IMG/VR virus record: IMGVR_UViG_2609459850_000004
Span: 1-16,327 of that record
Direction: 5' to 3' (one strand)
Source of the DNA: a virus
Lineage: Duplodnaviria > Heunggongvirae > Uroviricota > Caudoviricetes
Length of the DNA: 16,327 bases
The notes under the pieces are model-generated. The model saw nothing but the letters and a program-made list of their open reading frames with translations. It was not told the DNA's origin and ran no database searches. Of this stretch, positions 1,050 to 16,327 are shown in pieces (the first letter of the stretch is position 1; the number at the start of each line of letters is the position of its first letter). The position numbers were made by a program, and so were the translations under genes.

Positions 1050-1982
1050 ATGGACAACGACAAAATTGATCAACACAGCGACGAAATTGAAGTTGAGAGC
1101 GAAGAAAAAGAGCGCGGCAAAAAAATAGAAATAGATGAAGACCGACTCCCCTCCCGGGCGATGGCAATTCATGAGCATATCCGCCAGGATGGTGAAAAAG
1201 AGCTGGAACGCGACGCAATGGCGCTACTGTGGTCAGCCATTGCGGCGGGTCTGTCGATGGGCGCTTCGTTACTGGCAAAAGGGATATTTCAAGTCGAACT
1301 GGAAGGTGTGCCGGGCAGCTTCTTGCTGGAGAATCTCGGTTATACCTTTGGTTTTATTATCGTCATTATGGCCCGCCAGCAATTATTTACCGAAAATACC
1401 GTGACTGCGGTACTACCCGTCATGCAAAAACCGACAATGAGCAACGTCGGCTTACTTATACGGTTATGGGGCGTCGTGCTGCTGGGTAATATTCTCGGGA
1501 CAGGTATTGCGGCGTGGGCATTTGAATATATGCCTATCTTCAATGAAGAAACTCGCGATGCATTTGTCAAAATCGGCATGGATGTGATGAAGAACACCCC
1601 CAGCGAGATGTTTGCCAACGCGATCATTTCCGGCTGGCTGATCGCCACTATGGTTTGGATGTTTCCTGCAGCGGGTGCGGCAAAGATTGTGGTGATTATA
1701 TTGATGACCTGGCTTATTGCCCTGGGTGACACCACCCATATCGTGGTCGGTTCTGTTGAAATCCTCTATCTGGTGTTTAACGGTACGCTGCACTGGAGCG
1801 ATTTCATCTGGCCCTTCGCACTACCTACTTTAGCGGGGAACATCTGCGGCGGCACCTTTATCTTCGCGTTAATGAGTCATGCACAGATTCGTAACGACAT
1901 GAGCAATAAGCGTAAAGCAGAAGCACGCCAAAAAGCAGAACGTGCGGAAAACATTAAGAAAAATTATAAAAACCCGGCATAA
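1050..1982 (+). CDS. yfdC: YfdC inner-membrane protein, formate/nitrite transporter (FNT) family
   Basis: 310-aa ORF with an acidic N-terminus followed by multiple hydrophobic segments. Recognised as E. coli YfdC, which lies between mlaA and argW in E. coli; TAA stop at 1980-1982. Confidence 0.88.
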   Translation: MDNDKIDQHSDEIEVESEEKERGKKIEIDEDRLPSRAMAIHEHIRQDGEKELERDAMALLWSAIAAGLSMGASLLAKGIFQVELEGVPGSFLLENLGYTFGFIIVIMARQQLFTENTVTAVLPVMQKPTMSNVGLLIRLWGVVLLGNILGTGIAAWAFEYMPIFNEETRDAFVKIGMDVMKNTPSEMFANAIISGWLIATMVWMFPAAGAAKIVVIILMTWLIALGDTTHIVVGSVEILYLVFNGTLHWSDFIWPFALPTLAGNICGGTFIFALMSHAQIRNDMSNKRKAEARQKAERAENIKKNYKNPA

Positions 1983-2017
1983 ATGGCGAGGGTTTAAGCA
2001 ATCGAGCGGCAGCGTAC

Positions 2018-2046
2018 TTACCCCGCACTCCATTAGCGGGTATACT
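2018..2046 (+). promoter_or_regulatory. Putative sigma70 promoter of the tRNA-Arg gene
   Basis: TATACT hexamer at 2041-2046, 11 nt upstream of the mature tRNA 5' end, with a weak -35-like TTACCC at 2018-2023 (17-bp spacer). Pattern only, no experimental support. Confidence 0.3.
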
Positions 2047-2057
2047 CATGCCGCATT

Positions 2058-2132
2058 GTCCTCTTAGTTAAATGGATATAACGAGCCCCTCCTAAGGGCT
2101 AATTGCAGGTTCGATTCCTGCAGGGGACACCA
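2058..2132 (+). tRNA. argW: tRNA-Arg (anticodon CCU)
   Basis: 75-nt cloverleaf: acceptor stem GTCCTCT/AGGGGAC, anticodon stem AGCCC/GGGCT with loop CTCCTAA (anticodon CCT), T-arm GGTTCGATTCC, discriminator A and encoded CCA at 2130-2132. Confidence 0.93.
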
Positions 2133-2293
2133 TTTATCAGTTCGCTCCCATCCGTACCAGTCCGCAAAATCCCCTGAATATCAAGCCTTCCGTAGATTCA
2201 CAGTTCGTCATGGTCCGCTTCAGATCGTTGACAGCCGCACTCCATGACGGGTAAAAAGTGGATAAAATAATTTTACCCACCGGATTTTTACCC

Positions 2294-3451
2294 ATGCTCA
2301 CCGTTAAGCAGATTGAAGCAGCAAAGCCGAAAGAAAAACCATACCGCCTACTCGATGGTAATGGCCTGTACCTTTATGTCCCTGTGTCAGGGAAAAAGGT
2401 ATGGCAGCTTCGCTACAAGATTGACGGTAAGGAGAAAATCCTGACCGTCGGAAAATATCCGCTAATGACTTTGCAGGAGGCAAGAGATAAAGCATGGACC
2501 GCGAGGAAAGACATCTCGGTTGGCATCGATCCGGTAAAAGCGAAAAAGGCTTCGTCTAACAACAATTCCTTTAGTGCCATTTACAAGGAATGGTACGAGC
2601 ACAAGAAGCAAGTCTGGTCAGTAGGCTATGCAACTGAACTTGCCAAAATGTTTGATGACGACATTTTACCCATCATCGGCGGTCTTGAGATTCAGGATAT
2701 TGAGCCGATGCAACTGCTGGAAGTAATCCGCAGATTTGAAGATCGCGGTGCAATGGAGCGAGCCAACAAAGCCCGCAGAAGATGCGGCGAGGTTTTCCGT
2801 TACGCTATTGTCACCGGCAGGGCTAAATATAACCCGGCACCTGACCTTGCTGACGCCATGAAGGGGTACCGCAAGAAGAACTTCCCGTTTCTTCCTGCAG
2901 ACCAGATCCCGGCATTCAATAAAGCACTGGCAACATTTTCAGGAAGTATCGTATCGCTCATTGCCACCAAGGTTTTACGCTACACTGCCCTAAGAACGAA
3001 AGAGCTTCGTTCCATGCTATGGAAGAACGTCGATTTTGAAAACAGGATTATCACCATCGACGCCAGTGTGATGAAGGGCCGCAAGATTCATGTTGTTCCT
3101 ATGTCAGACCAGGTGGTTGAGCTTCTCACTACGCTAAGCTCCATCACTAAACCAGTCTCAGAGTTTGTTTTTGCCGGGCGCAACGATAAGAAGAAGCCAA
3201 TCTGCGAGAACGCGGTATTGCTTGTGATCAAACAAATCGGCTATGAAGGTCTGGAAAGCGGTCACGGATTCAGGCATGAATTCAGCACGATTATGAACGA
3301 GCACGAATGGCCTGCCGACGCCATTGAAGTGCAACTGGCACATGCCAACGGCGGATCTGTGCGTGGAATTTACAATCATGCTCAGTATCTCGATAAGCGC
3401 AGAGAAATGATGCAGTGGTGGGCGGACTGGCTTGATGAAAAGGTAGAGTGA
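2294..3451 (+). CDS. intS: P4-family tyrosine integrase (IntS-like prophage integrase)
   Basis: ORF directly downstream of the tRNA and reading away from it. N-terminal arm-binding-type region (KPYRLLDGNGLYLYVPVSGKKVWQLRYKIDGKEK), C-terminal catalytic region with conserved R (LRTKELRS), HGFRHEF and a tyrosine (RGIYNHAQY). The ORF track starts at GTG 2258; I prefer ATG 2294 (385 aa) from my recollection of IntS. Confidence 0.9.
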   Translation: MLTVKQIEAAKPKEKPYRLLDGNGLYLYVPVSGKKVWQLRYKIDGKEKILTVGKYPLMTLQEARDKAWTARKDISVGIDPVKAKKASSNNNSFSAIYKEWYEHKKQVWSVGYATELAKMFDDDILPIIGGLEIQDIEPMQLLEVIRRFEDRGAMERANKARRRCGEVFRYAIVTGRAKYNPAPDLADAMKGYRKKNFPFLPADQIPAFNKALATFSGSIVSLIATKVLRYTALRTKELRSMLWKNVDFENRIITIDASVMKGRKIHVVPMSDQVVELLTTLSSITKPVSEFVFAGRNDKKKPICENAVLLVIKQIGYEGLESGHGFRHEFSTIMNEHEWPADAIEVQLAHANGGSVRGIYNHAQYLDKRREMMQWWADWLDEKVE

Positions 3452-3691
3452 GCGACCTTAAACTATCGAATAGCACAAAGCCTTGCAATCCAGTGCAAAG
3501 CTTTGTGCGTATCAGTTTTGTCTGAGTGTTCTACTGAAAACATAGTAAAATCGGTAACAGTTGGAAATCATTCAATACTCGCACTATCAGAAGTTCACCA
3601 GCCAGTCGTAGCCCGTACCTCCGTACGACGTGCTACGGTTTCATTTATCCGGTGCGCCGTAAAACCCCGTCCTTCAGGGCGTGGAGGATGT

Positions 3692-3775
3692 CAACTGGAC
3701 GCACTGGAGCTGGTCGATACTTCCGGTGCGCCAGATATTGAATGGCCTACGCCTCCGGCTGTTCAGGCCAGATGA
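3692..3775 (+). pseudogene. Relic of a second tail-fibre-assembly (Tfa) gene, C-terminal end only
   Basis: Plus-strand translation ends ...QLDALELVDTSGAPDIEWPTPPAVQAR*, the Tfa C-terminal signature (compare the minus-strand Tfa ending VDTSTAPDVIWPEQPEA). The upstream 60 codons of ORF 3503-3775 look like junk. It is convergent with, and overlaps, the 3' end of the intact tfa. Confidence 0.45.
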
Positions 3776-4163
3776 CATCAGGGGCCGTTGACGTATCAAC
3801 GGCTTTCACCGCTTTTTTATGCGCCATCCACTCAGACAATTTCGCTTTATCCTCGTCACTTATATCGCCGAGCATTAATTCACCCCGCCAGTCGGCGGTT
3901 ACTTCGTCAATCTGCTGTAGCCGTTGCTGGCGATATTGTTCTGCCGCCGCTATTTGCTCTTCATGCGTTGGAGGTGGCGCATCGACCCAAGCTGGCAGTC
4001 CAGTGCTATCTGCACCAAGCATTTTACCTTCAGGCCAGGCAATACCAGCAAATTGGCTGTAGAGGTTAACACTGATTTCAATAGCTGATTCAGGAATAAA
4101 CCTGCTTTCAGGTTCAATATAAAATCCGTTATCAACGGCGTCATAAAAGTATCTTTTTTCCAT
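3747..4163 (-). CDS. Phage tail-fibre assembly protein (Tfa, lambda Tfa / P2 gpG / Mu U family)
   Basis: 138 aa; C-terminus KAVKAVDTSTAPDVIWPEQPEA matches the conserved Tfa tail. It follows the fibre gene, with the stop of the fibre gene adjacent to its start. Confidence 0.85.
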   Translation of the reverse strand: MEKRYFYDAVDNGFYIEPESRFIPESAIEISVNLYSQFAGIAWPEGKMLGADSTGLPAWVDAPPPTHEEQIAAAEQYRQQRLQQIDEVTADWRGELMLGDISDEDKAKLSEWMAHKKAVKAVDTSTAPDVIWPEQPEA

Positions 4164-4164
4164 G

Positions 4165-4878
4165 TTAATAACCTATTGCCAATAAACAACCGGCAGCTTG
4201 AGCAGCCGTCCATGAAGTCCCATTAACTGTTCCTAAAGCACGAACTTTGACTGTCGTTCTGGTAGAGCCATTAATATCGAAGCCCCACGTTGTGCCGGAC
4301 GATCCATTCCACGAGCTAGCAGAAGCACCTGAGTCAATCGCAGTGGCATGAAGCAGAGCGTTAGGAAATGCTATAGGTAATGTAACGGTTGCTAATCCAG
4401 TCGAATCGGCAACAAATCCAGAGACCCACTGGAAAATGATATTTTGTTCAACCCCATCAATTAAAGCCGGGATCAATATTCTCCCGGTATTACCAGTTAC
4501 CCCTACAGCAGCGCCAAGTTTTGCCGCTTCTCCCAAACCAAGATTTTCGAGAGCCGTTTCCACCGTGCCGTCCGATTTGATATCGCCAAACGGATTCTTG
4601 CGGCTCAGGTATTCAACAGCAAACCCCGATCCCAGCAATTCAACAAAACCGGGCAGATCACCATTATCAAGCACATCCCGTTGCGTTTTGTCACTTACAA
4701 ACTGGGCCAGAGCTGCAGCAATAAAGCTGGCCTGCCGAATAACCTTATTGACTTGCGCACTGGATGCTTTACCTGCTGTAAATCCGGATAAAAGCGCGGG
4801 CAACGCTTCCCATTCCTCCTGCGATATAACATTGGCACTTCGATCCGTTGCAAACGCTTTAAAGTCATTTTTCGCCAT
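4165..4878 (-). CDS. Phage tail-fibre protein (short; gpH / Mu S position)
   Basis: Position between the gpI-like gene and tfa. Start ATG at 4878 overlaps the stop of the upstream gene (TGATG); the track's alternative start is 4896. Gly/Ser/Thr-rich C-terminal half typical of fibre distal domains. Assignment is by synteny plus composition. Confidence 0.65.
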   Translation of the reverse strand: MAKNDFKAFATDRSANVISQEEWEALPALLSGFTAGKASSAQVNKVIRQASFIAAALAQFVSDKTQRDVLDNGDLPGFVELLGSGFAVEYLSRKNPFGDIKSDGTVETALENLGLGEAAKLGAAVGVTGNTGRILIPALIDGVEQNIIFQWVSGFVADSTGLATVTLPIAFPNALLHATAIDSGASASSWNGSSGTTWGFDINGSTRTTVKVRALGTVNGTSWTAAQAAGCLLAIGY

Positions 4879-5558
4879 CAGAGTAATACTCCCCATGCTC
4901 CTACATCAAAACCACTGATGAATTCGTTATCTATATCAAAACCAAAAAATTTTGAGCCTTCCGATGGGGTTTCCACCGAAGGTGTTTCAATGCCTCCCGC
5001 CCATACCCCGGCGGCTTTTACTGTGAGATACCCCTGTTTAATTGCCGCAATTAACTCACGCGATACATCTGAAATATCAGTATCAGGAAAGACCCAGACC
5101 GATATCGTCATGTCCTGGTTATCGACTATCTGCATTCGCAGTCCGGATCCTGCTGTCGCCGCGTCAAGAATTACCGGAAGCGAATCATTCCGTCCGTCCC
5201 AGTTATTAATCGCAATCTTCGCTTTAAGAATGACACGATAAGTTTCATCGCTGAGATACATGTATCCAGAATCAGGATCATATGGCCCCTGCCATACCCC
5301 CTGATCATATCCAATCCCGTCGGCATCCCAGCTGAAATAGACACCTGAGATAGGCTGGCTGACAACACGGCTGCGTCCGATCCACAATCCAAGAATGTCA
5401 AGTTGCACACCAACCGCAGAGTCAATATCAAATGCAGTAATCAGCCCTCTGGTGGCAGCCGCAACATCAATAAGCGGCCGGGTCATCAGATCAACATGTG
5501 CAAGAAATTTAGGTTTGGTGGCGTGATAGTTTGTGATTAGTTCGGTGTATTTGCTCAT
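4878..5558 (-). CDS. Baseplate protein, P2 gpI / Mu gp48-like (DUF2313/YmfQ-like)
   Basis: 226 aa; ATGA start/stop overlap with the J-like gene; synteny J-I-fibre. Family recognised from memory. Confidence 0.65.
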   Translation of the reverse strand: MSKYTELITNYHATKPKFLAHVDLMTRPLIDVAAATRGLITAFDIDSAVGVQLDILGLWIGRSRVVSQPISGVYFSWDADGIGYDQGVWQGPYDPDSGYMYLSDETYRVILKAKIAINNWDGRNDSLPVILDAATAGSGLRMQIVDNQDMTISVWVFPDTDISDVSRELIAAIKQGYLTVKAAGVWAGGIETPSVETPSEGSKFFGFDIDNEFISGFDVGAWGVLL

Positions 5559-6754
5559 GACTCCACCGTTATAACGATATTTTCCGGGGTACAGGACGCA
5601 GATTCGTTATATCTGATATCAATGTTTGATGACGACAAAGCCCCAGGGGATTTCCCAATCGTCAGTTCCTGAATATCGTAATAGCGTGCATTCCCGCCAC
5701 TCACCACGCCAAGATTCGCCGGTGAGTAAATGCGACTTAAAAGGACCGAATCACCAATCATCAGACTATTGATATAGTCGGAAATAGCCGGCTGGATCTG
5801 CTGCCCTATCTGTGAGGTATAACCCGTAAAAACTTTTAATTTAATCCGGGCATAAACAGGCACATCACTGGAACGCGAGAATTTGATTACATGGGGATTG
5901 CCGTATTTATCCGGAACCGTAACGGATGTTGTACCGTGAGTGGCTGTACCCTGGCCTTTATTCCCTCTAATAGCCTGAGCAATATCCGTCACATCACCGC
6001 CATCCACAATTACAGCAACAGAGTGTGGCGGTAACCCGTTACCGTCCTCCGAACCAGTATCGTTTTCATAGAGTTTGTGGCGGGTTACACCGGTAACATT
6101 AGAAACAGCACCATCCAGTGCTTCAAATGGGGTTATTGATGGCAACGCAACACTTTGCGACTGGCGGATACGTAACTCCGCATCAGTTTCTGCTGGAGTG
6201 CCTACAGTAGCTGCAGCAGGATTGGTTACCGAAACCCAGCCACGGGTCGGTGTGTTAATGGTGGTAATAGTCCCGGCCATCGCCGCAACCGAACCGCTAT
6301 TCGCACATGTGGCCGTCACCAGCACAGTACCATCAACCCCGATTGCTACACTCGCGGGAAAATTCCAGATAATGCCGTTTTTATCCCGTGCGGAGCCATT
6401 CGTGATAGTCGTGCCAGCCGTACCGGTTAACAGAAGGTCAGCAGTAGAGTTTGTTGCTACTTTTCGCGTGATCCCGTTAATTTTCACATTGCTGCTAAGC
6501 GCTGCGGCCTGCGCTGTCGTCGGTGAAAACGAGTTGTAGATCTCGATAGCGGTATTGTTAGCATCATGCACAGCCAGAGCCACCAGCGCGACCATTTGCC
6601 CATCTTTGCTGTCTGGTTCGAGGTAGGCATCACTACCGTAAATCTGCCTGAAATAGCTGGTCAGTGTATCGAGGATTGTCTGGTAATCAGGCGCACTAAT
6701 CCCCTGGGCGGTTACCGTTGCCGATAGCCCCAGCGTGTCGAGGTTCAAAGCCAT
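5555..6754 (-). CDS. Baseplate J-like protein (P2 gpJ / Mu gp47 family)
   Basis: 399 aa; size and position between the W-like and I-like genes, with translational coupling on both sides. Confidence 0.75.
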   Translation of the reverse strand: MALNLDTLGLSATVTAQGISAPDYQTILDTLTSYFRQIYGSDAYLEPDSKDGQMVALVALAVHDANNTAIEIYNSFSPTTAQAAALSSNVKINGITRKVATNSTADLLLTGTAGTTITNGSARDKNGIIWNFPASVAIGVDGTVLVTATCANSGSVAAMAGTITTINTPTRGWVSVTNPAAATVGTPAETDAELRIRQSQSVALPSITPFEALDGAVSNVTGVTRHKLYENDTGSEDGNGLPPHSVAVIVDGGDVTDIAQAIRGNKGQGTATHGTTSVTVPDKYGNPHVIKFSRSSDVPVYARIKLKVFTGYTSQIGQQIQPAISDYINSLMIGDSVLLSRIYSPANLGVVSGGNARYYDIQELTIGKSPGALSSSNIDIRYNESASCTPENIVITVES

Positions 6755-7108
6755 TTATGCCTCGCTTGTTACAGTCGTCTGGCCGTAGATTGTGTCAATG
6801 GAGGAAGTGAAAGTGACGCGTCGGCTGTTGCCGTCATAATTGGTATCGAAGGAAAGAATCGACAGAACGCCCGGCGTGTCCTGTATGCGTTCGCGTATAG
6901 CCAGGATGTAGACGTCTGATCGCTGTTTCCCAAGCACTGACTGAACATACGGCGTACCTTCCGTCAGATCGAGAAACCACTGACCGCGCCACAGCTCGAA
7001 ACGGGTTTTTACGGCCTGGGCGACACACTCCGGACTGTCTATAAGGAAGGTGTCGTCACCCTGCCCGAAAGTGTAATCACCGTCAGCATCTTCTCGTCGG
7101 TATCGCAT
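6755..7108 (-). CDS. Small baseplate protein, gpW / gp25 / Mu gp46-like
   Basis: 117 aa; sits between the V-like and J-like genes and its start overlaps the V stop (TAATG). Assignment mainly by size and synteny. Confidence 0.5.
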   Translation of the reverse strand: MRYRREDADGDYTFGQGDDTFLIDSPECVAQAVKTRFELWRGQWFLDLTEGTPYVQSVLGKQRSDVYILAIRERIQDTPGVLSILSFDTNYDGNSRRVTFTSSIDTIYGQTTVTSEA

Positions 7109-7848
7109 TATTGCGGCCCTCCAGTAGTCCCCCCGCCTGTCTGAACTCCGCCATGTTTATGCGTGGCGACACTTATACCTGAAGCTGTCACATCATTCGT
7201 TACCGTAACCGGCCCAAGCATCGTCGCAGTACCACCACTTTCTCCCATTCCCTGAGACAGGTTACCGTTAATCGTTACGTTGCCGTTCAGCGTGATGGTC
7301 GGGGATGTGATTGTCGTTCCACCTTCAGCCGTAGCCGTAAGCTGGCCCGGCGTTTTAATGGTGATGTTATGTCCTGCAGCGACCTCTACGAACGCCGCAC
7401 CATCATCGGTTCGCAGCTGCGCGGCGCTGGTGCTGATACCACTGATTTTCTGTGCTTGCGACTGCGGGCCAACGATGGCGAACGCATCAGATAAGTCATG
7501 CTGGCGCGGGTCGACGGTCTCCTGAACGCCGCCGCTCTGCCACCAAAAATCAATGCAACGGTCGGCAAAGATCAGCAGGCACTCGTCGCCTTCTTTTACC
7601 GGAAAGGTCAGCGTGCAACCGCCGCCGCGCGGGAAGATAACCGGCACATCCACCAGCGGTTTTAATTCGGTGGAGCCATCGCCAACAATACCGCGAAGCG
7701 CCACTTCTACTGTGCAGGTTACAGCGTCAGGATCGAACGACTGAATGATGCCAGGCATCGCCACGCGCATTTGGGTAGACACTGAATCGGCAATGGCCTG
7801 CGCGGTCTGCTGCTCACCGCCGATCTGTGATTGAGTTGGAATTGGCAT
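7108..7848 (-). CDS. Baseplate spike/hub protein (P2 gpV / Mu gp45 family)
   Basis: 246 aa; C-terminus ...ATHKHGGVQTGGGTTGGPQ matches the gpV apex motif (P2 gpV ends HTHKHPGDSGGTTGSPL) and N-terminal ...MPGIIQSFDPDAVTCTVEV resembles the gpV OB-fold start. An internal Met (MRVAMPGII) could be the true start. Confidence 0.8.
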   Translation of the reverse strand: MPIPTQSQIGGEQQTAQAIADSVSTQMRVAMPGIIQSFDPDAVTCTVEVALRGIVGDGSTELKPLVDVPVIFPRGGGCTLTFPVKEGDECLLIFADRCIDFWWQSGGVQETVDPRQHDLSDAFAIVGPQSQAQKISGISTSAAQLRTDDGAAFVEVAAGHNITIKTPGQLTATAEGGTTITSPTITLNGNVTINGNLSQGMGESGGTATMLGPVTVTNDVTASGISVATHKHGGVQTGGGTTGGPQ

Positions 7849-7858
7849 AAAAACCCCA

Positions 7859-7882
7859 TAAAAAAACCAGCCGAAGCTGGTT
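7859..7882 (-). terminator. Rho-independent terminator-like hairpin (minus-strand sense)
   Basis: Stem AACCAGC (7865-7871), loop CGAA, stem GCTGGTT (7876-7882), preceded on the plus strand by A7, which is a T-run after the hairpin on the minus strand. Lies about 10 nt upstream of the gpV-like start. Confidence 0.4.
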
Positions 7883-8059
7883 TGGTATCAATTACTAAGC
7901 TACATCAGTGTGAAGTAAGGCTTTTCCGCTGCAATGGCACACATTCACAAGGTGTATTAGGATATGTTTGCAACAAGTAAGCATTAAAAATCAATTTCAG
8001 CCATGAAGCCGCCATAGAGTGGACCTGCACCATCGCATTCTTGACTACAGGAGTAACAA

Positions 8060-8350
8060 ATGGGATTTAGATTTCGCAAAAGAATCCGGATTGCGCCCGG
8101 ACTCGCGATCAACATTAGCAAAAGCGGAGTAAGCACTTCGATTGGTGGTAAAGGTTCCACCATTAACATCGGGAAAAAAGGCGTAAAGATGACAAATGGC
8201 CTTCCCGGCACTGGGCTGTCGCATACCACTAACCTTTACTCTCCCGGAAAATCGACAGAAAAAAAACAACTTACTCATAAGCAAAAAATAATTAGAAACA
8301 TCCTGTTCGTAATTATTGTGTTTATTATAATTAAAGCTCAATATTTTTGA
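8060..8350 (+). CDS. Small DUF4236-like protein with C-terminal transmembrane helix
   Basis: 96 aa; RBS AGGAG at 8049-8053 with 6-nt spacer. N-terminus MGFRFRKRIRIAPGLAINISKSGVSTSIGGKG...PGTGLSHT matches the DUF4236 pattern as I remember it; C-terminal ILFVIIVFIIIKA is hydrophobic. AT-rich. Confidence 0.6.
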   Translation: MGFRFRKRIRIAPGLAINISKSGVSTSIGGKGSTINIGKKGVKMTNGLPGTGLSHTTNLYSPGKSTEKKQLTHKQKIIRNILFVIIVFIIIKAQYF

Positions 8351-8355
8351 CGCAT

Positions 8356-8386
8356 GCCCGCCTATCTGGCGGGCTATTTTACTTTT
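8356..8386 (+). terminator. Rho-independent terminator between convergent genes
   Basis: Perfect 7-bp stem GCCCGCC (8356-8362) / GGCGGGC (8368-8374), loop TATCT, then T-rich TATTTTACTTTT. The lipoprotein stop codon lies inside the stem. Confidence 0.6.
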
Positions 8387-9264
8387 CGGCAGTCGTATGT
8401 TGCATACTGTCGCGGCGCATCCATGCTGGCTTGTACCCACTGAGCGTTTAGGATGGCTTTTCCTTTACGTTTAATGTATTCAATACCAACCCAACGACCG
8501 GGCAGACTGGTAGCAACCATCCACTCCATTTTTATATTATCCGGTTCGTTGTTAGTGCTGCCACCAGCACCGATGGGAGTAATTTTTTGCGTCTCTGGTT
8601 TCGCGCCATTAATTCTGGCCCAGCCATCAGCAGAGGAAAGATCTATCCTATACGGTCCACAAACTATTATGTAATTGATGCCAAGTTTTTCGTTGCTGCG
8701 AGCTTTCCTGCTTTTCTCATAATCTTCCTTCGCAACATCATTCATCTTTTGATAGATAGCAGGTTGTTTTAAAGAAAACTCATTCAGCTTCTTAATAAAG
8801 TTTTCTCGCGGAACCTCTGCAAGCCCCATAGATTTTCTATCAAGGATATAGTCATCATATATCTTTGACACAACAGAAAGTGATGACAGTTTTTTAGCTA
8901 AATCATTTGCAAAGTTTAGATAATTAAGTGGTGAGTTGTCTCTTATATCAATAGCTCTAACTCCACCTGTACCGTATTCATGATAAGCAGCATAAAAAAC
9001 AGGTATACTTTCAGGTTTTTTGTTAATCGCTTTAATTAGTCCTTCTGGACCGCAAGACTCTCCACTCCAGTCAATAAGCGACTTCCCTTTCGATTTCCAT
9101 GTTTGGCAATCATCAGCTGATAAAATTAAAATTGGCTGCCACCCCGGGCGTTTTTTGTAACTAACATTCTTATCAGAATTGAAGCCTGCATTTGCGCATC
9201 CAGAAACGAGCAGCACCGACAGGAAAATCACACTGTATCGAAGTCCATTCATGTTCTTATACAC
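8374..9264 (-). CDS. Lipoprotein of unknown function
   Basis: 296 aa; signal peptide with lipobox LLVSGC; strong RBS AGGAGGAGG upstream of the GTG start at 9264 (alternative ATG at 9252). AT-rich compared with neighbours. Confidence 0.65.
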   Translation of the reverse strand: MYKNMNGLRYSVIFLSVLLVSGCANAGFNSDKNVSYKKRPGWQPILILSADDCQTWKSKGKSLIDWSGESCGPEGLIKAINKKPESIPVFYAAYHEYGTGGVRAIDIRDNSPLNYLNFANDLAKKLSSLSVVSKIYDDYILDRKSMGLAEVPRENFIKKLNEFSLKQPAIYQKMNDVAKEDYEKSRKARSNEKLGINYIIVCGPYRIDLSSADGWARINGAKPETQKITPIGAGGSTNNEPDNIKMEWMVATSLPGRWVGIEYIKRKGKAILNAQWVQASMDAPRQYATYDCRKVK

Positions 9265-9308
9265 TCAACCTCCTCCTGAACGAGCTATAGTCGCCTGGCT
9301 AATCAGAT

Positions 9309-9322
9309 GGCACTGTTGCAAA
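9309..9322. repeat. IS26 terminal inverted repeat (14 bp)
   Basis: GGCACTGTTGCAAA, the perfect reverse complement of 10115-10128. Confidence 0.95.
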
Positions 9323-9360
9323 GTTAGCGATGAGGCAGCCTTTTGTCTTATTCAAAGGCC

Positions 9361-10065
9361 TTACATTTCAAAAACTCTGCTTACCAGGCGCATTTCGCCC
9401 AGGGGATCACCATAATAAAATGCTGAGGCCTGGCCTTTGCGTAGTGCACGCATCACCTCAATACCTTTGATGGTGGCGTAAGCCGTCTTCATGGATTTAA
9501 ATCCCAGCGTGGCGTTGATTATCCGTTTCAGTTTGCCATGATCGCATTCAATCACGTTGTTCCGGTACTTAATCTGTCGGTGTTCAACGTCAGACGGGCA
9601 CCGGCCTTCGCGTTTGAGCAGAGCAAGCGCGCGACCATAGGCGGGCGCTTTATCCGTGTTGATGAATCGCGGGATCTGCCACTTCTTCACGTTGTTGAGG
9701 ATTTTACCCAGAAACCGGTATGCAGCTTTGCTGTTACGACGGGAGGAGAGATAAAAATCGACAGTGCGGCCCCGGCTGTCGACGGCCCGGTACAGATACG
9801 CCCAGCGGCCATTGACCTTCACGTAGGTTTCATCCATGTGCCACGGGCAAAGATCGGAAGGGTTACGCCAGTACCAGCGCAGCCGTTTTTCCATTTCAGG
9901 CGCATAACGCTGAACCCAGCTGTCAATCGTGGAGTGATCGACATTCACTCCGCGTTCAGCCAGCATCTCCTGCAGCTCACGGTAACTGATGCCGTATTTG
10001 CAGTACCAGCGTACGGCCCACAGAATGATGTCACGCTGAAAATGCCGGCCTTTGAATGGGTTCAT
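9361..10065 (-). CDS. tnp26: IS26 transposase Tnp26 (DDE, IS6 family)
   Basis: Translation MNPFKGRHFQRDIILWAVRWYCKYGISYRELQEMLAERGVNVDHSTI...GDPLGEMRLVSRVFEM recognised as Tnp26. ATG at 10065 lies 64 bp inside the element end; the track ORF begins at an upstream TTG (10083). Confidence 0.95.
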   Translation of the reverse strand: MNPFKGRHFQRDIILWAVRWYCKYGISYRELQEMLAERGVNVDHSTIDSWVQRYAPEMEKRLRWYWRNPSDLCPWHMDETYVKVNGRWAYLYRAVDSRGRTVDFYLSSRRNSKAAYRFLGKILNNVKKWQIPRFINTDKAPAYGRALALLKREGRCPSDVEHRQIKYRNNVIECDHGKLKRIINATLGFKSMKTAYATIKGIEVMRALRKGQASAFYYGDPLGEMRLVSRVFEM

Positions 10066-10114
10066 GTGCAGCTCCATCAGCAAAAGGGGATGATAAGTTT
10101 ATCACCACCGACTA

Positions 10115-10128
10115 TTTGCAACAGTGCC
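10115..10128. repeat. IS26 terminal inverted repeat (14 bp)
   Basis: TTTGCAACAGTGCC, the perfect reverse complement of 9309-9322. Confidence 0.95.
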
Positions 10129-10154
10129 CGTGCAGTTAAGCAGAGGGCTGAATA

Positions 10155-11306
10155 ATGGTGAACGAGAGACGAGATTATGAGGTTAATTTCCTGTACTACC
10201 CGGAAGTGTTCGCTGCGGCTCTGTCGCGTGTTGAACCAGACACGTCAGTCCTGGGCTGGCTGGGCCAGGCTCGCGCTCTGGCGTGCTGGTGTGAGCTGCT
10301 GAGGCTCGACCCACTGGAGACCTGTGTGGAGTGGTCTGCGCGTGGTGTGAACGCGGGTAAGGCCGACAGGGCAATGTTAGCGTCGGCGCTGCGTGACCTG
10401 GATGACCTCGACCGGCTGGCGGCGGCTGGGGCGTTCCTGCGCTCCTCCGGGGTGGCTGCTGACGTTGCTGCCGGGCGCATCGCTGTTCGTGAGCCCACCG
10501 AGGACGAGCTGGCTGCTCGTCAGGCGCATCTGGTTGCACTACGGGAACGTGCGGCTGCTGCTGCGGCGAAGCTGACGGAGGCTCGCATTAAGGCAACCGG
10601 TAGGGCGCGGATGCTGCTGCATCGCGCCAAAAAGCCGGGGAATGCGGCGCTGTACTGGAAGGCCAAGGAGCGAGCTGCGGAGCGTTTGCTGCCGTGCCCT
10701 GACGACGTGAAGTGCTCGGACTGGAGCACGTTCCTGCCGGTGCTGGGTCGCGTGTGGTGGAATGAGTCGCTTCTGGTGCCGCTGTACGGGGTGAACGAGT
10801 CACTACGGTTGGAGTGTATGTCAGTGGAGGTGATTTGCGGTCGCGCCAACCCTGAGGCGGCAGGTTCGCTGGGCGAGAAGCGTGGCCTCGAGAATGCACC
10901 GCGTGAGGGGCTGTTTTACCCGTTCGACCTGTCCAGCGTCCGTTCTGGTAACCCTCTGGTCATCTGCGAGGGGTTCATGTCGGGGCTGGCGCTCTCTCTG
11001 CTGATGGGCGGCAAGCTGCCGGTGATCTGCGCGATGTCGGTGGGTAACTTCGGGGCGACAGTGCAGACGCTGAATAAGTTTGTTATGGGTGACTCCCCGT
11101 TCGTACTGGTACCGGACATTGGCGGGCAGGATCTGGCTATCGATCAGGCTATCCCGAATGCCCGGGTGATCGACCTGTCGGCGGTACCGGGAGCCGAGGG
11201 CGTGGACGGCTACGACCCGTTCGATCTGCTGGCGCGTCATGGTGTCGAGATGGGACGTAAGTATCTGCGGAGCTTGTTTCGTGAGGCGCGTGACGCGAGC
11301 CTGTAG
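10155..11306 (+). CDS. Toprim-like domain protein (primase-related?), high GC
   Basis: 383 aa; RBS GAGGG 7 nt upstream of the ATG. C-terminal half carries NPLVICEGFMSGLALSLL...PVICAMSVGNFGATVQ...FVLVPDIGGQDLAIDQ, resembling Toprim motifs (DnaG-like EGxxD...DxD region). The Ala/Arg-rich N-terminal half is unrecognised. In-frame stop at 10149-10151 shows the ORF is not truncated by IS26. Confidence 0.55.
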   Translation: MVNERRDYEVNFLYYPEVFAAALSRVEPDTSVLGWLGQARALACWCELLRLDPLETCVEWSARGVNAGKADRAMLASALRDLDDLDRLAAAGAFLRSSGVAADVAAGRIAVREPTEDELAARQAHLVALRERAAAAAAKLTEARIKATGRARMLLHRAKKPGNAALYWKAKERAAERLLPCPDDVKCSDWSTFLPVLGRVWWNESLLVPLYGVNESLRLECMSVEVICGRANPEAAGSLGEKRGLENAPREGLFYPFDLSSVRSGNPLVICEGFMSGLALSLLMGGKLPVICAMSVGNFGATVQTLNKFVMGDSPFVLVPDIGGQDLAIDQAIPNARVIDLSAVPGAEGVDGYDPFDLLARHGVEMGRKYLRSLFREARDASL

Positions 11307-11337
11307 TGGTACCAGGTTTCTCTCTCTCGTTGTTCTC

Positions 11338-11363
11338 AGCCCGCTTCGGCGGGCTTTTATTTG
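11338..11363 (+). terminator. Rho-independent terminator
   Basis: Stem AGCCCGC / GCGGGCT with TTCG tetraloop, followed by TTTTATTTG; 32 nt after the stop at 11306. Confidence 0.6.
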
Positions 11364-11374
11364 AGGATCTCCCC

Positions 11375-11680
11375 ATGACCGACCAGACCACCACCATCGC
11401 CGACCTGGCGCTCTCACAATCCGCGTTTCTCGTCTCTCAGGCTGTCGTTGAGCTGGACGCCATGTTCGGCGAGGGCTATGCCGCTGCTCACCCGGCTGTG
11501 CTGGCTCAATTCCTGCAGACGGCGGGGGTCATCTTCGCCACACAGCTGCAGGCTTCTGCCGCGTTCGACCTTGCCTCGCAGCTCGACCGCCTGATTGGCT
11601 TGGGGCTGGCTTGCTGCAAGCCAATCAGGGTGCCTCGCACTAAAACGCCGGGGCCGGCTGCGATCAGTCCTTTGCTATGA
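11375..11680 (+). CDS. Hypothetical small protein (101 aa)
   Basis: ATG at 11375 preceded by GAGGA at 7-nt spacing, immediately after the terminator. Ala/Leu-rich with no recognisable motif. The track ORF begins upstream at 11306 without an RBS. Confidence 0.45.
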   Translation: MTDQTTTIADLALSQSAFLVSQAVVELDAMFGEGYAAAHPAVLAQFLQTAGVIFATQLQASAAFDLASQLDRLIGLGLACCKPIRVPRTKTPGPAAISPLL

Positions 11681-11828
11681 GGCGACGCCCCAGGGGTTCG
11701 CCCCTGATCAGCTGGAGTCCGTAGACCGGACGTCTGATGCCCGGTGGCGGGCGTTCTACCTCGCCAGCTATGGCTACTGCCTCGAGTACGCGGGGTTTTG
11801 ACCTGGGCGGCGGCTGCCGCGCTACCGG

Positions 11829-12356
11829 TTACTTCAGGTCAGGCATCCGGCGGGTGATCACCGTGTTGATGCGGTCGTTGTTCCATGGGCGACCGTTCGA
11901 CTGCAGGAGCCCTGCCTCGTTCAGCGCCTGGGCGATAGCTTTGTTGTCGTAGCGGAATCCCCGATCGCGCTGCTCCTCCCTCATGCGCCGTATGGTGGCC
12001 ATCACCTCGGCCTCGTCGTAATGCCCCGAAAATTCAGCGCCAGCGGGGCGCTGTGCTGCGTTTTGTGTTTCAGATGAGTTACTAGTCAGCTTTTCAGCCC
12101 GTGGCCTTGTAGCGCGTCCTGTTGGCTTCTGTAGCACATTGTGTTTCAGCGTATTCGAGATGTCCTGCAGCAGCTCCACCATCAGGTCGAGGCGGTTGCC
12201 GCTCTCCCCCTGCGGCTCTGGTATGCCAAGGTATGCACGGAGTGCGTCGGTAATCACGTCGGTGCGGGTACGGTTCGTTTTCTCGGCCAGCTCGTTCGTC
12301 TGCTCGAGCAGGTCGGCGGGGAGACGTAGGCTGAATGTCGGGCTTTTGCGCTGCAT
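11829..12356 (-). CDS. Ribbon-helix-helix DNA-binding protein with recombinase-like C-terminal domain
   Basis: 175 aa from ATG 12356, with AGGAG-containing RBS. N-terminus MQRKSPTFSLRLPADLLEQTNELAEKTNRTRTDVITDALRAYL is a typical RHH (CopG/Arc-like) segment. C-terminus EVMATIRRMREEQRDRGFRYDNKAIAQALNEAGLLQSNGRPWNNDRINTVI resembles the recombinase-family DNA-binding domain pattern (IA..LN..G....G..W....V..I). No serine-recombinase catalytic domain is present. Confidence 0.55.
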   Translation of the reverse strand: MQRKSPTFSLRLPADLLEQTNELAEKTNRTRTDVITDALRAYLGIPEPQGESGNRLDLMVELLQDISNTLKHNVLQKPTGRATRPRAEKLTSNSSETQNAAQRPAGAEFSGHYDEAEVMATIRRMREEQRDRGFRYDNKAIAQALNEAGLLQSNGRPWNNDRINTVITRRMPDLK

Positions 12357-12860
12357 CCGTGTTGCTCCTGTGTGGTCTGGTGCCACCGATTGAAACACGT
12401 TTGTAACTTCTCGTCTATTTCGACGTGTTGCGCTTGTGCTGCATAACCGGTACGGGTCGAGCCCTTCGGCTCGACTCTCTGGTGCCAGTGGACAAGCCCT
12501 GTGGACAATTTGCCGTGTCAGTGAATAAATGCGTGGCGCGATCACGACAGCTCGATAAGCGGTCGCCGTTCAGTGGCGTGAAGGGTTAGGATCGGTTAAG
12601 CTGATCGTCGTTCGTGGATTATGTTGGGTGATCTGCGGGCACAAAAAAAGCACCTGGCCGGGTGCTTTGATTGCCGGGGTTAAACCCCGTAGTTTCGAGT
12701 CAGTGTCTTGACGGACGTACTCGAAGGAAATCATACATCACGTTGGGTGATTCTCAAATCCTCGCTGAGAATTGTATCACGTCGATAAGATCGTGCAAGT
12801 CGATTTCCTCCGTAATCCCCCGCCTGACGCCGACTCCTACGTTTTTAAAGGAGTTGTAAC

Positions 12861-14420
12861 GTGCCAAAAACTAAACAAGAAATAGCCACTGTAACGCCGA
12901 TCACCGCTGCACCGTCACCGCTGTCGCTAAAATTGGGCGATGCGCTGTTTTCTGTCTTGTCGGTGTCTGCGGACTGGTCTGGTGACTACCGCGCTCAATT
13001 CGAGCTGTATGGCCTGAATGTAAAAGCTATCAACTCTGCCGTCGGCACTGCCGTCTGGCACGCTGGCAAGGGGCGGTTCCTCTCTGTCCTAAATGGCTCC
13101 CTGACCGAGTTCGATAAGGGCGACGGAATGAAGCTGCTGGAGGACTCCTGCGGCAAGTTCTGGCACCGCACCGATGCGTTTATCGCCCGCCTGACTGACC
13201 TCAAAATCAAGACCGACGACAAGGTAACCAAGGCGTGTATCGATATGGCTCGGGCTGTTCGTCAGGCGGGGGCTGAGTTCATCATGCTGCGCCGTCAGGT
13301 GGCAGTCGTTCGCCTCGACGTGGACATGTTCGCCACGGCTCCTCGCGTCGAACTGGTGGGTGAAACTGTGACGTTCGTCCGTCCTCATGCTCCCTATCCG
13401 GTGGCTAATGCCGACAGTGACGTGGTGGCTGATTGGCTGGTTCATTTCCCTCAATGCCATGAGTTCCTCGACGCGCTGGTTGCAGCCCGCTTTGCCTCAA
13501 GCCGTAAGAATGCCTACCTGTTTTTCCGTGCGCAGTCCGATTGGGGTAAGGGGCTGCTGTTTGGTGCTGGCGGCGTTCTGTCACGCCTGGGAGCGACGGT
13601 GGAGCTGTCCGAGGGGGAGCTGCTCAACATCCTGAGCGGTGCCAACTCCGGTGTAACGGCTAGTCACTTCATGGGGGCGCTGGCGCTGATCGTCAACGAA
13701 TGCACCAGGGTGACGAAAAAGCACTTTCGTCTTGAGGAGTCGCTGGCTCTGACGCCGAAGTACCTCACGACGCAGTGCGTGAACCTGTACATGAAAATTT
13801 TCACCAGTGCCGACCCGATCCCCGGACTGTCCGACTCCGACGGAATTGACCCGCAGGTGGCGAACCGCTTTTCTATGCTCGATCTGCAGGGCGACATCAA
13901 GACGCGCCCGCTGTTCCTGTCCGACAAGGGACGCTATGTCGACAGCCTGACGTCGTTCTTTGCCGCCGAGCTGAATGCCAGGGTGGCGTCCTATCAGGCT
14001 AAGGGCTTTGAGACCGCTCGCCGCGATGCCGACCATGTTCTGGCTGCTTTCACCACTGCGCATGGGTTGGCGAATGCTGCCGGGCTGATCACCGACGCGT
14101 ATGACGAAATTCGGGCTGAGTGGGTGGCGTTCGTCCATGGGCGTGTTGCTGATGGGCACCCGGACTTCCTCACCTTCGAATCAAAGGCTGGTTTGGTTCT
14201 CCGCTCTCCTGTCGGATGCTGGGGTAAGTTCCTCGACTGGTACGTGGACAAAAGCGAACCGCTGCGCCGTGCTCGCCTGATGCATGACCGCGATCTGATC
14301 ATCGGCTGCGCGAAAAAATACCGCGATGTTGGTGGCGCTGCTGAAGGCAAGGGGGTGCTCATCCCGTTCGTGTCCGGCTCGATGCCCGACAACGTCCACC
14401 GGTTCCGGTACAAAAATTGA
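12861..14420 (+). CDS. Hypothetical 519-aa protein, candidate replication-associated (unrecognised family)
   Basis: Long high-GC ORF with GTG start preceded by AAGGAG at 7-nt spacing, followed by a strong terminator and an iteron array. No family recognised; the replication role is inferred from context only. Confidence 0.65.
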   Translation: MPKTKQEIATVTPITAAPSPLSLKLGDALFSVLSVSADWSGDYRAQFELYGLNVKAINSAVGTAVWHAGKGRFLSVLNGSLTEFDKGDGMKLLEDSCGKFWHRTDAFIARLTDLKIKTDDKVTKACIDMARAVRQAGAEFIMLRRQVAVVRLDVDMFATAPRVELVGETVTFVRPHAPYPVANADSDVVADWLVHFPQCHEFLDALVAARFASSRKNAYLFFRAQSDWGKGLLFGAGGVLSRLGATVELSEGELLNILSGANSGVTASHFMGALALIVNECTRVTKKHFRLEESLALTPKYLTTQCVNLYMKIFTSADPIPGLSDSDGIDPQVANRFSMLDLQGDIKTRPLFLSDKGRYVDSLTSFFAAELNARVASYQAKGFETARRDADHVLAAFTTAHGLANAAGLITDAYDEIRAEWVAFVHGRVADGHPDFLTFESKAGLVLRSPVGCWGKFLDWYVDKSEPLRRARLMHDRDLIIGCAKKYRDVGGAAEGKGVLIPFVSGSMPDNVHRFRYKN

Positions 14421-14426
14421 ACAATA

Positions 14427-14448
14427 ACCCGCTTCGGCGGGTTTTTTT
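14427..14448 (+). terminator. Rho-independent terminator
   Basis: Stem ACCCGC / GCGGGT with TTCG loop followed by T7 (14442-14448); 7 nt after the TGA at 14418-14420. Confidence 0.7.
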
Positions 14449-14454
14449 ATGGCT

Positions 14455-14535
14455 TGGAACCTCGCTGGAACCTCGCTGGAACCTCACTGGAACCTTCTTA
14501 AACCCGCGCCATTGCTGGTTGGAACCTTTGGAACC
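14455..14535 (+). repeat. Direct iteron-like array of heptamer TGGAACC
   Basis: TGGAACC at 14455, 14466, 14477 and 14488 (exact 11-bp period, unit CTGGAACCTCG), plus two more copies at 14520 and 14529. Confidence 0.8.
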
Positions 14536-14606
14536 TGATTTTCTAACCTTCTCTCTCCAATAACGAAAGCTCTCTCAATTTCCCTGATTACTCTTTTTAA
14601 AAAATA

Positions 14607-14696
14607 GGTTCCAAGGTTCCATCGTTGATTTTAAAAGATTTTTTAAGGTTCCAATGCGGTTCCAAGGCGGTTCCACAAGGTTCCAAGGCGGTTCCA
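14607..14696 (-). repeat. Inverted-orientation array of the same heptamer (GGTTCCA)
   Basis: GGTTCCA at 14607, 14615, 14647, 14658, 14669, 14679 and 14690 (10-11-bp period in the last five, unit GCGGTTCCAAG). Separated from the direct array by an AT-rich spacer (14536-14606). Confidence 0.8.
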
Positions 14697-15565
14697 GCTC
14701 AATTCCTGCGCAGTTGACGCGCCGCAGCTGCACCCCGTTGGGGATGCACTTTGCGTGTCGTGTTTGGATCTGGTGTCGCTCTCCCCGGTGCGTGGTTTGC
14801 ACCTGCCGGATCTCCAGCTAAAAAAGCCCGGAGGGAAATGGGGGCAGTTTCCAGTGCTGGCGGGGGTTGGCGGGTGGTTTATGCACGGTGGATCGTGGTT
14901 GGCACCGTGCATTGGTGTTTGGCGGCAATCGCCGCGCCTACCGGTTTGCCAAATCCTGCCCCAACTTTCAGGGGGTACAGGGGCTTAAATGGGGTGCTGT
15001 CGTGTCGTTGGGTTGGTTCGGGGTTGAGGCGCTTAGAATGGCTCTGGTGCGTTCTGGTGGGGGCGTGCTTTCTAACCGGTAGGGGCGCAGCTGTCGCCGC
15101 GCTCCTGGTTGGGGTTAGCGCCAGCGTTCGAGCCGGTACCTGACAGTGATCCCGTTCTTCGACATGGTGTGGACGTAGTCCGGGTTTTTCAGCGTGAGGT
15201 CGATCGCCTTGGTGCGGTGCGTCTTGTATTTGTACCGGGCTTCCTCGGGGAAGTTCTCGCCTGTGACCATCTCATCCCATGACTCTGTTCACAGCGTATG
15301 CCATGCCGAGCGTACTGCGGAAGACAACGCCACGCTGTTGAAGCAAGTCAGCTTCTTAGACAAGCGTGTGACTGTATTGTCGGAGCAGCTGAAGCAGTTC
15401 GGGAACCTCTACAAGCAGAACAGGAGTTAAGACGGCAGAAGAACGAGAACGCTCAAGAGCTGACAAAGTCGGCACCAAAAATCGCCCCTGTGGCATTCAA
15501 GAAGAGATCAGGCCCTGATTATGGGCCTAGCATGTAATGCCAGGATGAATTGCTCTCTGTGCCTT

Positions 15566-15973
15566 TTACAATTCATCTTTTTGTAAAAAACTAAGAAATA
15601 CAGGCAAAATTTCTTCTTGCATGAAAGCTGCTTCCATTTGAGTTGTCGGTAAGGAAGCCGCTCTTTGAGCGAGTTTCAAACAAACTATTTTTAACGCACC
15701 CAAACAATCTTCTCCTTGAATAACAAGGCTATTTTCAGAAGAATAATTTTTCATGAAAGTTAGGGTTGAATGCAATGCCACTGCTTCTGGCATAAGCCGT
15801 TTCCCTTTGTGTTTTGCAAAAACATCGGGCATGGCACGGTACTGATTTATTATTATGACGTGCGCTAAATCAGGCACTTGTAGTTTAAAAAGATTAGGTA
15901 AAAGGCGAAGCTCAGTATCAACAATGGTTTCCACTTTAGAAATATAAAAAATTTCAGCAATGCCACTGAACAT
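15566..15973 (-). CDS. Hypothetical protein (135 aa), low GC
   Basis: ATG at 15973 with GGAGG RBS at 5-nt spacing; 27 nt downstream of the preceding gene on the same strand (operon-like). No motif recognised. Confidence 0.55.
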   Translation of the reverse strand: MFSGIAEIFYISKVETIVDTELRLLPNLFKLQVPDLAHVIIINQYRAMPDVFAKHKGKRLMPEAVALHSTLTFMKNYSSENSLVIQGEDCLGALKIVCLKLAQRAASLPTTQMEAAFMQEEILPVFLSFLQKDEL

Positions 15974-16000
15974 ATCGCCCTCCGGTTACAGTCAAAACTA

Positions 16001-16327
16001 TCAGTATTTACCACCTTGAATAACGCTTAAACCGTTTGATAGAGCCTTTTTATGATTACTTACCGTGCCTTTCCAGCCAAACTGCGGATTCAAGCGGTAG
16101 GTTTTGCTACGCCCGATTTTAGGACCCTCTAAAATAATTCCAAACTCAATGAGGTTTTTCACGGCACGGCTGACATGGGGTTTTTGCATGTTTAAAGCAT
16201 CAGCAATGTCTATCTGCGCTACCTGAATATAATTTTCATAATCAAGTTCAGCTAAAAGAGCCATTAAAACGCGCATTTGATCATGATTTAGTTCATTGGC
16301 GATAGTGATTAGTGCTGCTTGATTCAT
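16001..16327 (-). CDS. Putative winged-helix DNA-binding protein (regulator or replication-associated)
   Basis: 108 aa; start codon is the last three bases of the window. Central segment QIDIADALNMQKPHVSRAVKNLIEFGIILEG has an HTH-like pattern. Family not identified. Confidence 0.5.
   Translation of the reverse strand: MNQAALITIANELNHDQMRVLMALLAELDYENYIQVAQIDIADALNMQKPHVSRAVKNLIEFGIILEGPKIGRSKTYRLNPQFGWKGTVSNHKKALSNGLSVIQGGKY

Follow-up and report, generated by a model that had tools for sequence, protein, structure and literature searches.

Introduction

In PMC9371898, the replication origins of Staphylococcus aureus pathogenicity islands (SaPIs) are described as 6–12 short iterons directly downstream of rep, placed around an AT-rich centre with at least two opposed iterons on each side, and these iterons are read by the C-terminal winged-helix domain of a self-loading superfamily 3 (SF3) helicase. 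The phage-inducible chromosomal islands (PICIs) of E. coli are organised alike, and the rep-ori segment of EcCICFT073 drives plasmid replication (PMC6092414). Here we describe a locus of related layout in a 16,327-nucleotide stretch of DNA, positions 1 to 16,327 of IMG/VR virus record IMGVR_UViG_2609459850_000004 (hereafter, the window). Two opposed arrays of the heptamer TGGAACC at 14455-14696 lie directly behind rep, the gene for a 519-amino-acid (aa) protein with a predicted SF3 helicase fold. We consider it very likely that 14455-14696 is the replication origin of a primase-helicase-origin (pri-rep-ori) module of the SaPI/PICI type, with the 519-aa helicase as its initiator; binding, melting, helicase loading, priming and replication activity at this site are what we infer.

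Several features connect this locus to SaPIs and PICIs, with SaPIbov1, SaPI1, SaPI5 and EcCICFT073 as reference elements. SaPIs and PICIs use a self-loading SF3 helicase as initiator, a type to which the 519-aa protein is assigned by predicted fold, and their origin lies immediately 3' of rep, as the arrays do here. Short opposed iterons surround an AT-rich centre in each case, 5–6 nt long in 6–12 copies in SaPIs and 7–9 nt long in 13 copies here. The primase of SaPIs and PICIs is encoded upstream or is fused to the helicase; here it would be a separate 383-aa open reading frame (ORF) with weak primase signals. Each SaPI or PICI Rep matches its own origin (PMC9371898; PMC6092414), and comparison of sequences suggests the same pairing here. 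In contrast to SaPIs and PICIs, the 519-aa family has no sequence similarity to SaPI Reps or to VapE and DUF5906 cassette proteins, its hosts are autonomous 11-13-kb plasmids, and a divergent gene for a ribbon-helix-helix (RHH) protein separates pri from rep.

Results

Opposed TGGAACC arrays flank an AT-rich core

The window contains 14 copies of TGGAACC where 2.2 would be expected. None of 200 shuffles gave as many, and 13 of the 14 copies fall inside 14455-14696. Six of these are on the plus strand. Four form a left outer array (14455-14494) with an exact 11-bp period (starts at 14455, 14466, 14477 and 14488), and the other two form a left inner doublet with copies 9 bp apart (14520-14535; starts at 14520 and 14529), the position of which is kept in all clades. 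The minus strand carries seven copies, comprising a right inner doublet with copies 8 bp apart (14607-14621; starts at 14607 and 14615) and a right outer array of five at 10–11 bp (14647-14696; starts at 14647, 14658, 14669, 14679 and 14690), with spacings in order of 8, 32, 11, 11, 10 and 11 bp. The two sets are convergent and face each other across a 71-bp spacer of 69% AT (14536-14606), which we propose as the DNA-unwinding element. On both sides, the gap between the outer array and the inner doublet is 32 bp, or about three helical turns, and the layout is therefore a pseudo-dyad.

The exact start positions bear out an original prediction made from the sequence of the window, which had described six direct copies (four at exactly 11 bp), seven copies on the opposite strand (five at 10–11 bp) and a 71-bp AT-rich spacer. 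The prediction had placed the start of the arrays at 14427; this position belongs to the terminator hairpin behind the upstream gene and not to a repeat.

The heptamer is unchanged in 13 of 13 copies. The base after it is T in 10 copies and G in 3, and 11 of the 13 copies have a T or C in front, for a consensus with flanks of YTGGAACCK. Along the DNA, the order is gene, terminator, direct array, AT-rich core and inverted array, and the first iteron lies 35 nt past the rep stop codon, right behind the terminator. Three ORFs that run over the repeats (14575-14802 and 14643-14912 on the minus strand, 14654-14821 on the plus strand) were not accepted as genes, since their translations are those of the repeats and all three are absent from the RefSeq annotation.

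Within the GC-rich module as a whole, duplex stability is lowest in the 60-mer at 14587-14647 (z 4.6), which spans the right end of the 71-bp core, the right inner doublet and the AT-rich gap beyond it. Across clades, the core keeps its length (71-78 bp) and AT fraction (0.69-0.77) while its sequence drifts. We found no DnaA box in the origin or in the module right of 12508.

The repeats change together with the rep gene

We compared the arrays with those of related loci, which are numbered here with the prefix L. All copies are TGGAACC in the window, L001, L009 and L010, and all copies are TGTAACC or TGCAACC, never TGGAACC, in L002, L006, L007, L008 and L011. L012, L014 and L017 have CTGTTAAC or close variants of it instead. 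The layout is kept at the loci of homologues with 41-44% identity, where the repeats read CTGTTAAC and GTTAACAG or differ slightly from these, and the offsets of the repeats from the stop codon are almost equal throughout the 519-aa family. Conservation is concentrated in the repeats themselves: relative to L010 (protein identity 81%), the heptamers match at 91 of 91 positions and the remainder of the origin region at 152 of 217 (70%). Position 3 of the heptamer is G in all 13 copies of the window and in none of the TGTAACC plasmids. This purity of the arrays argues for a discriminating binder that would differ between TGGAACC and TGTAACC plasmids. The 519-aa protein differs between them in an uneven manner, with 99% identity of the TGTAACC/TGCAACC plasmids to the window over residues 15-383 and 81% over residues 384-519.

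Other conserved proteins do not follow the repeats. The RHH protein is 100% identical between L004, which has a VapE initiator and GTTCCACCC repeats, and L008, which has TGTAACC repeats, and the RHH protein of the window, found with TGGAACC repeats, is 98.3% identical to both. Plasmids with TGGAACC, VapE and DUF5906 cassettes share the 383-aa primase-like protein at 100% identity, and the resolvase, a serine recombinase, is 96-98% identical across cassettes. Because these three proteins are 96-100% identical across different repeat types, none of them would be the repeat binder, and the strict co-variation suggests that the repeats belong to the upstream rep gene alone. Both the RHH protein and the 519-aa protein had been named as candidate binders in the original prediction. 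The identical RHH protein beside TGTAACC in L008 and GTTCCACCC in L004 contradicts the former proposal; the latter gains credit, because the repeats co-vary with the gene of the 519-aa protein only and because its predicted fold is that of an origin-binding SF3 helicase.

Two phage-like contigs repeat the order of gene, terminator, array, AT-rich core and inverted array at fused homologues of 775-779 aa (L025:2409-2860 and L026:6341-6830), with TTATTACCT and TGTAACTTT as their repeats. These arrays are likely to be unannotated phage origins. Terminase or Cro-like genes lie near the fused homologues in L025 / L026. The homologue in Vibrio phage CP-T1 was considered as a further case of this layout and rejected; its primase gene is followed by another gene and then by a 21-bp tandem repeat.

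Putative initiator genes and origins occupy one exchangeable slot

Sibling plasmids have other initiators in the slot of the 519-aa gene, and behind each of these lies a set of opposed repeats of its own, with an AT-rich stretch in the middle. A VapE initiator with repeat unit GTTCCACCC is present in L004 and L019, a second VapE type with GTGTGGGGGT in L020, a DUF5906/D5_N initiator with AAGTAACCC in L005, and a DUF927 initiator with TGGAACCAGT in L023. The last of these is from pSYM9 (NZ_CP060068.1; L023:5700-6032 plus L024:1-760), in which a small Rop-like gene and then 13 copies of TGGAACCAGT/ACTGGTTCCA come after the DUF927 initiator. Homology between the window and the VapE plasmid breaks off at 12870 and restarts at 14716, which would make the exchanged unit exactly the gene, its terminator and the repeats (12871-14715).

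The DUF927 protein and the 519-aa protein share no significant similarity (BLASTP E 0.05, in the region after the ATPase domain). The repeats of the VapE (GTTCCACCC) and DUF5906 (AAGTAACCC) cassettes loosely resemble TGGAACC/TGTAACC, and several cassettes conform to a loose TG(G/T)(A/T)AAC. The presence of VapE and DUF5906/D5_N in sibling cassettes is a further link to SaPIs, given that the SaPI1 PriRep1 chain was deposited as 'similar to D. nodosus vapE'. We lean, by a modest degree, towards the view that the origin marks an unrecognised replicon class in widespread, untyped small enterobacterial plasmids, in which a single slot receives at least four sequence-unrelated initiator families (519-aa, VapE, DUF5906/D5_N and DUF927), exchanged as precise gene-plus-origin cassettes with their own convergent iterons. 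Among these families, the SF3 fold assignment made here applies to the 519-aa family only.

The 519-aa protein has the predicted fold of an SF3 helicase

Searches of the 519-aa protein against Pfam, NCBIfam and PDB sequences, with the single sequence as well as with a profile, gave no match, and its identification comes solely from PHROGs and fold comparison. In PHROGs, it aligns with positions 372-791 of a 'DNA primase' family that is 826 residues long (E 2e-46). Its AlphaFold2 model (predicted local distance difference test score, pLDDT, 81.6) matches the fold of vaccinia D5 (comparison score 12.4), NrS-1 (11.6), papillomavirus E1 (10.1), SaPI5 PriRep5 (9.8), SV40 large T antigen (8.5) and SaPI1 PriRep1 (8.3), as well as that of E5. 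By this predicted fold, we assign the 519-aa protein to the SF3 replicative helicases. Among the proteins matched, E1, SV40 T antigen and the SaPI Reps are self-loading helicases that bind the origin of their own replicon.

Distant homologues form about 500 representative clusters, are mostly 700-1000 aa long and match in their C-terminal half; in some of them, the N-terminal extension contains PriCT_2. Comparison of the 519-aa family by hhalign with P4 alpha, VapE, DUF5906 and DUF927 proteins showed no significant similarity, and neither did the family profile against PDB sequences, including the SaPI Rep entries 7ola and 7pds. The invariant Walker A motif of the family reads SDWGK followed by G or D instead of S/T (residues 226-230), and its Walker B motif is N-E instead of D-D/E (residues 279-280), which is unusual for an SF3 helicase.

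We used the natural variation in repeat type to ask where specificity may lie. The close TGGAACC and TGTAACC groups have fixed differences at 27 residues, all of them in alignment columns 330-505, and N-terminal variation in the family is independent of repeat type. With the deeper pair L010/L011 added, six residues track the repeat type (N405K, A406T, G455S, K486A, G491T and G492T). The C-terminal 135 aa, residues ~384-519 (nt 14010-14417), are thus a candidate origin-specificity domain. In the VapE protein of L020, the C-terminus has a weak match to a GntR-type winged helix.

The module is a captured fragment of a small-plasmid backbone

The window is 100% identical to the E. coli IncR plasmid p5-S1-CAM-01-A over the stretch compared, and an identical record (NZ_CP145712) supplies the coding sequence (CDS) annotation for IS26 and a small ORF. 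IS26 (9309-10128, minus strand; transposase ORF 9361-10083), for which both 14-bp terminal inverted repeats were found, forms the left boundary of the captured plasmid module and abuts the start of the primase-like ORF; the module is cut short at either end. The DNA to the right of IS26 (10129-15285) forms a block of about 60% GC that is homologous to 11-13-kb circular plasmids of Escherichia, Citrobacter, Enterobacter, Serratia and Klebsiella. The IncR plasmid has thus captured a second replication module, the activity of which is uncertain.

Four proteins are encoded in this block. The 383-aa candidate Toprim primase (pri, 10155-11306, plus strand) matches phrog_2249 (E 2.4e-8) and phrog_510 (E 0.04) and has a weak Toprim_3 match (E 0.07; E 5e-4 for the L014 homologue). 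It is followed by a small ORF annotated as a CDS of 101 aa (11375-11680, plus strand), the sole family match of which is phrog_1231 (unknown function). The 175-aa RHH (CopG/Arc-like) protein (11829-12356, minus strand; Pfam RHH_1, E 2.5e-6) is divergent from rep and is most likely a transcriptional regulator of the module. The 519-aa putative helicase-initiator gene rep, named by predicted fold, occupies 12861-14420 on the plus strand.

PLSDB lists the 11-13-kb relatives as non-mobilizable and without a replicon type, and the pri-rep-ori module is the sole recognisable replication module on these circular plasmids. A homologue of the 383-aa primase-like protein is present in at least 67 PLSDB records from seven enterobacterial genera. 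In complete E. coli genomes, the cassette was found in 11 of 5426, always on plasmids. No tyrosine integrase, phage-induction or packaging genes were recognised on the small plasmids. Because the element is restricted to plasmids in the 5426 complete E. coli genomes and has no tyrosine integrase and no recognisable packaging genes, it is not a PICI, though it shares the replicon type. The rep-ori cassette also occurs in two larger records of 32 kb and 92 kb (NZ_JCAPUP010000005 and NZ_CP193798).

The backbone of L001 (NZ_CP056203.1) is almost wholly uncharacterised. Among its genes are one for a 919-aa SLT-domain protein, which matches PHROGs of phage endolysins and lytic tail proteins, and one for a serine recombinase; there are also five small ORFs without a family, which form an operon, and several ORFs of 60-116 aa. 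The whole record showed no recognisable gene for mobilisation or partition. Two Enterobacter roggenkampii records (NZ_AP022468.1 and NZ_AP022469.1) are both 11,238 bp long with identical match coordinates and may be duplicates or isomers; the backbone of these plasmids also encodes a serine recombinase. A literature search on this small-plasmid family returned one genome report only, which mentions pOZ182 in passing. Past the module, the window holds a 135-aa ORF without a family (15566-15973, minus strand) and a 108-aa protein of the winged-helix type that weakly matches MarR, HTH_36 and Phage_rep_O (16001-16327, minus strand); both belong to the IncR context and not to the small-plasmid module.

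Further cis features adjoin the proposed origin

The intrinsic terminator of rep (14426-14450, plus strand) consists of a 7-pair stem, with the hairpin itself at 14426-14443, and a subsequent T run, and has a DNA fold z-score of -4.5. It is conserved in all loci of the 519-aa family and in L020. An Rfam scan of 14300-15600 returned just sub-threshold matches, which lie on this hairpin.

On the other side of the origin lies a conserved imperfect hairpin of the plasmid backbone (14716-14760, plus strand; DNA fold -11.9 kcal/mol, z -2.35) of the form GCAGCTGCAC-CCCC-loop-GGGG-A-TGCAC, in which the stem and the bulged A are kept and the loop is variable. It adjoins the origin in all cassette types (window; L001-L020) and is inverted in the CTGTTAAC clade (L012, L014 and L017). 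The conserved primase-like protein might use this hairpin for priming, or the hairpin might have another role in cis. It is followed by GC-rich backbone DNA (14761-15285) that is conserved across all cassette types, with 92-99.6% identity to L001, L002, L004, L005, L008, L009 and L010. The first ~370 bp of it, from 14761 to roughly 15115, has a GC fraction of 0.57-0.61 and a strong positive GC skew, and complete records annotate no CDS there or anywhere between the hairpin and an 80-aa backbone gene. The small-plasmid homology ends at 15285, inside this gene, which is truncated in the window.

Discussion

An origin is not the only function that could be assigned to such arrays. They might serve as a cis helper or copy-control site like crr of P4, bound by the 519-aa protein, with replication starting elsewhere and the two sites communicating by looping or handcuffing. 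The local syntax of P4 is alike, in that the alpha gene and its terminator are directly followed by crr, with 8-bp repeats in both orientations, and the P4 origin lies 4.5 kb away; the arrays of iteron plasmids also commonly limit copy number. However, the complete plasmids L001, L002, L019 and L020 each contain one cluster of their cognate heptamer and no second one, and a split into ori and crr as in P4 is therefore unlikely. The site also holds its own AT-rich, least-stable core, and the equivalent site of SaPIs and PICIs is the origin itself (PMC9371898; PMC6092414). We regard a crr-like function as improbable. A classical iteron origin served by a Rep_3/RepA-type initiator with host DnaA, DnaB and DnaC is less probable still. 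Direct repeats beside an AT-rich stretch are the hallmark of such origins, and the original prediction of an iteron-type origin holds as far as an origin with iterons around an AT-rich core is concerned. It fails for the classical type: the module has no Rep_3-type gene and no DnaA box right of 12508, its iterons are 7-9 bp long instead of 17-22 bp and form two convergent arrays, and the co-varying gene encodes an SF3 helicase by predicted fold.

The phased short repeats and the nearby RHH protein, one PHROG match of which is labelled 'partition protein ATPase' (E 1e-4), could also be read as a type II or type Ib centromere, in which the RHH protein would act as the ParR-like adaptor of a partition complex; a type II centromere had in fact been offered by the original prediction. 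This explanation is hard to reconcile with an RHH protein that stays 100% identical between GTTCCACCC and TGTAACC plasmids and 98% identical in the window, and arrays with G at position 3 in 13 of 13 window copies and none in TGTAACC plasmids speak against a tolerant shared binder. Furthermore, no ParM/ParA gene adjoins the site or is present in the module or the small plasmids, and the repeats are 2 kb from the RHH gene, past rep. We give a centromere very little credence. The small plasmids do carry a serine recombinase gene, which would suit a recombination site such as res, and an operator array would be another regulatory option. Yet the recombinase is nearly invariant across cassettes with unrelated repeats, its gene is at least 1.7 kb away and is absent from the window, and the site lies behind a terminator and not at a promoter. 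A recombination or regulatory site is the least probable of these explanations and, in our judgement, barely credible.

Several observations nevertheless weigh against 14455-14696 as an origin read by the 519-aa protein. The coding region for the C-terminus of rep adjoins the repeats, and their linkage could partly reflect a single recombination block. The TGGAACC core is not unique to the 519-aa family, as the repeats of the unrelated DUF927 cassette share it. Overall C-terminal identity is independent of repeat type and just six residues track it, which implicates a few residues and not the whole C-terminal domain. Modelled alone, the C-terminal region reaches a pLDDT of 49.8, too low for a fold assignment, and its profile has no match in PDB, in Pfam or with the origin-binding domain of P4 alpha. 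The non-canonical Walker A motif means that ATPase activity of the 519-aa protein is not certain. Finally, the module of the window is a fragment within an IncR plasmid and may be inactive here, because IS26 replaces the DNA upstream of pri.

If 14455-14696 is the origin and the 519-aa helicase its initiator, as we favour, replication could proceed as follows. The helicase would bind the TGGAACC iterons via its C-terminal region and assemble on both convergent arrays, probably as two hexamers face to face. It would then melt the 71-bp AT-rich core and load itself as the replicative helicase. The separate 383-aa Toprim-like protein would lay primers, and a host polymerase would carry out theta replication without DnaA.

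Parts of this scheme are familiar from other replicons. Much as proposed for the locus described here, P4 alpha combines a primase and an SF3 helicase with C-terminal origin binding to 8-bp repeats in both orientations (PMC2777425); unlike this locus, P4 has its primase fused and not in a separate gene, places its repeats in two separated clusters (ori and crr) instead of one, and shows no sequence similarity. The archaeal plasmid pRN1 resembles the module in its RHH repressor (the CopG-like ORF56), its SF3 replication protein (ORF904) and an essential cis region located just 3' of the ORF904 gene (PMC4234260; PMC2777425), but differs in its archaeal host, in a fused prim-pol in place of a separate Toprim protein, and in that no iterons were found in its origin. 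Papillomavirus E1 and SV40 large T antigen have an N-terminal origin-binding domain of a different fold and eukaryotic hosts. The classical iteron plasmids pSC101, RK2, F and R6K likewise have initiator-specific repeats beside an AT-rich unwinding element; unlike the module, they use 17-22-bp direct iterons, a winged-helix Rep that is not a helicase, usual DnaA boxes and a separate helicase. A replicon that carries its own helicase and primase is known from IncQ plasmid RSF1010. The mechanism class is thus known, and what is new is a 519-aa family unlike known initiators, its residence on autonomous plasmids, and the cassette slot.

Our analysis provides a probable initiator and origin for plasmids that current tools leave untyped and whose replication genes are annotated as hypothetical. 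The origin layout of SaPIs and PICIs is thereby seen on autonomous plasmids too, where it accompanies a family of predicted SF3 helicases without a Pfam model. The analysis also suggests that the IncR plasmid holds a second, unrelated replicon, which could affect host range, copy number and incompatibility. Swapping of gene-plus-origin cassettes is a plausible escape from incompatibility among related plasmids. If our interpretation is true, the natural TGGAACC/TGTAACC pair, with its six tracking residues, would offer an experimental handle on how SF3 initiators read DNA.

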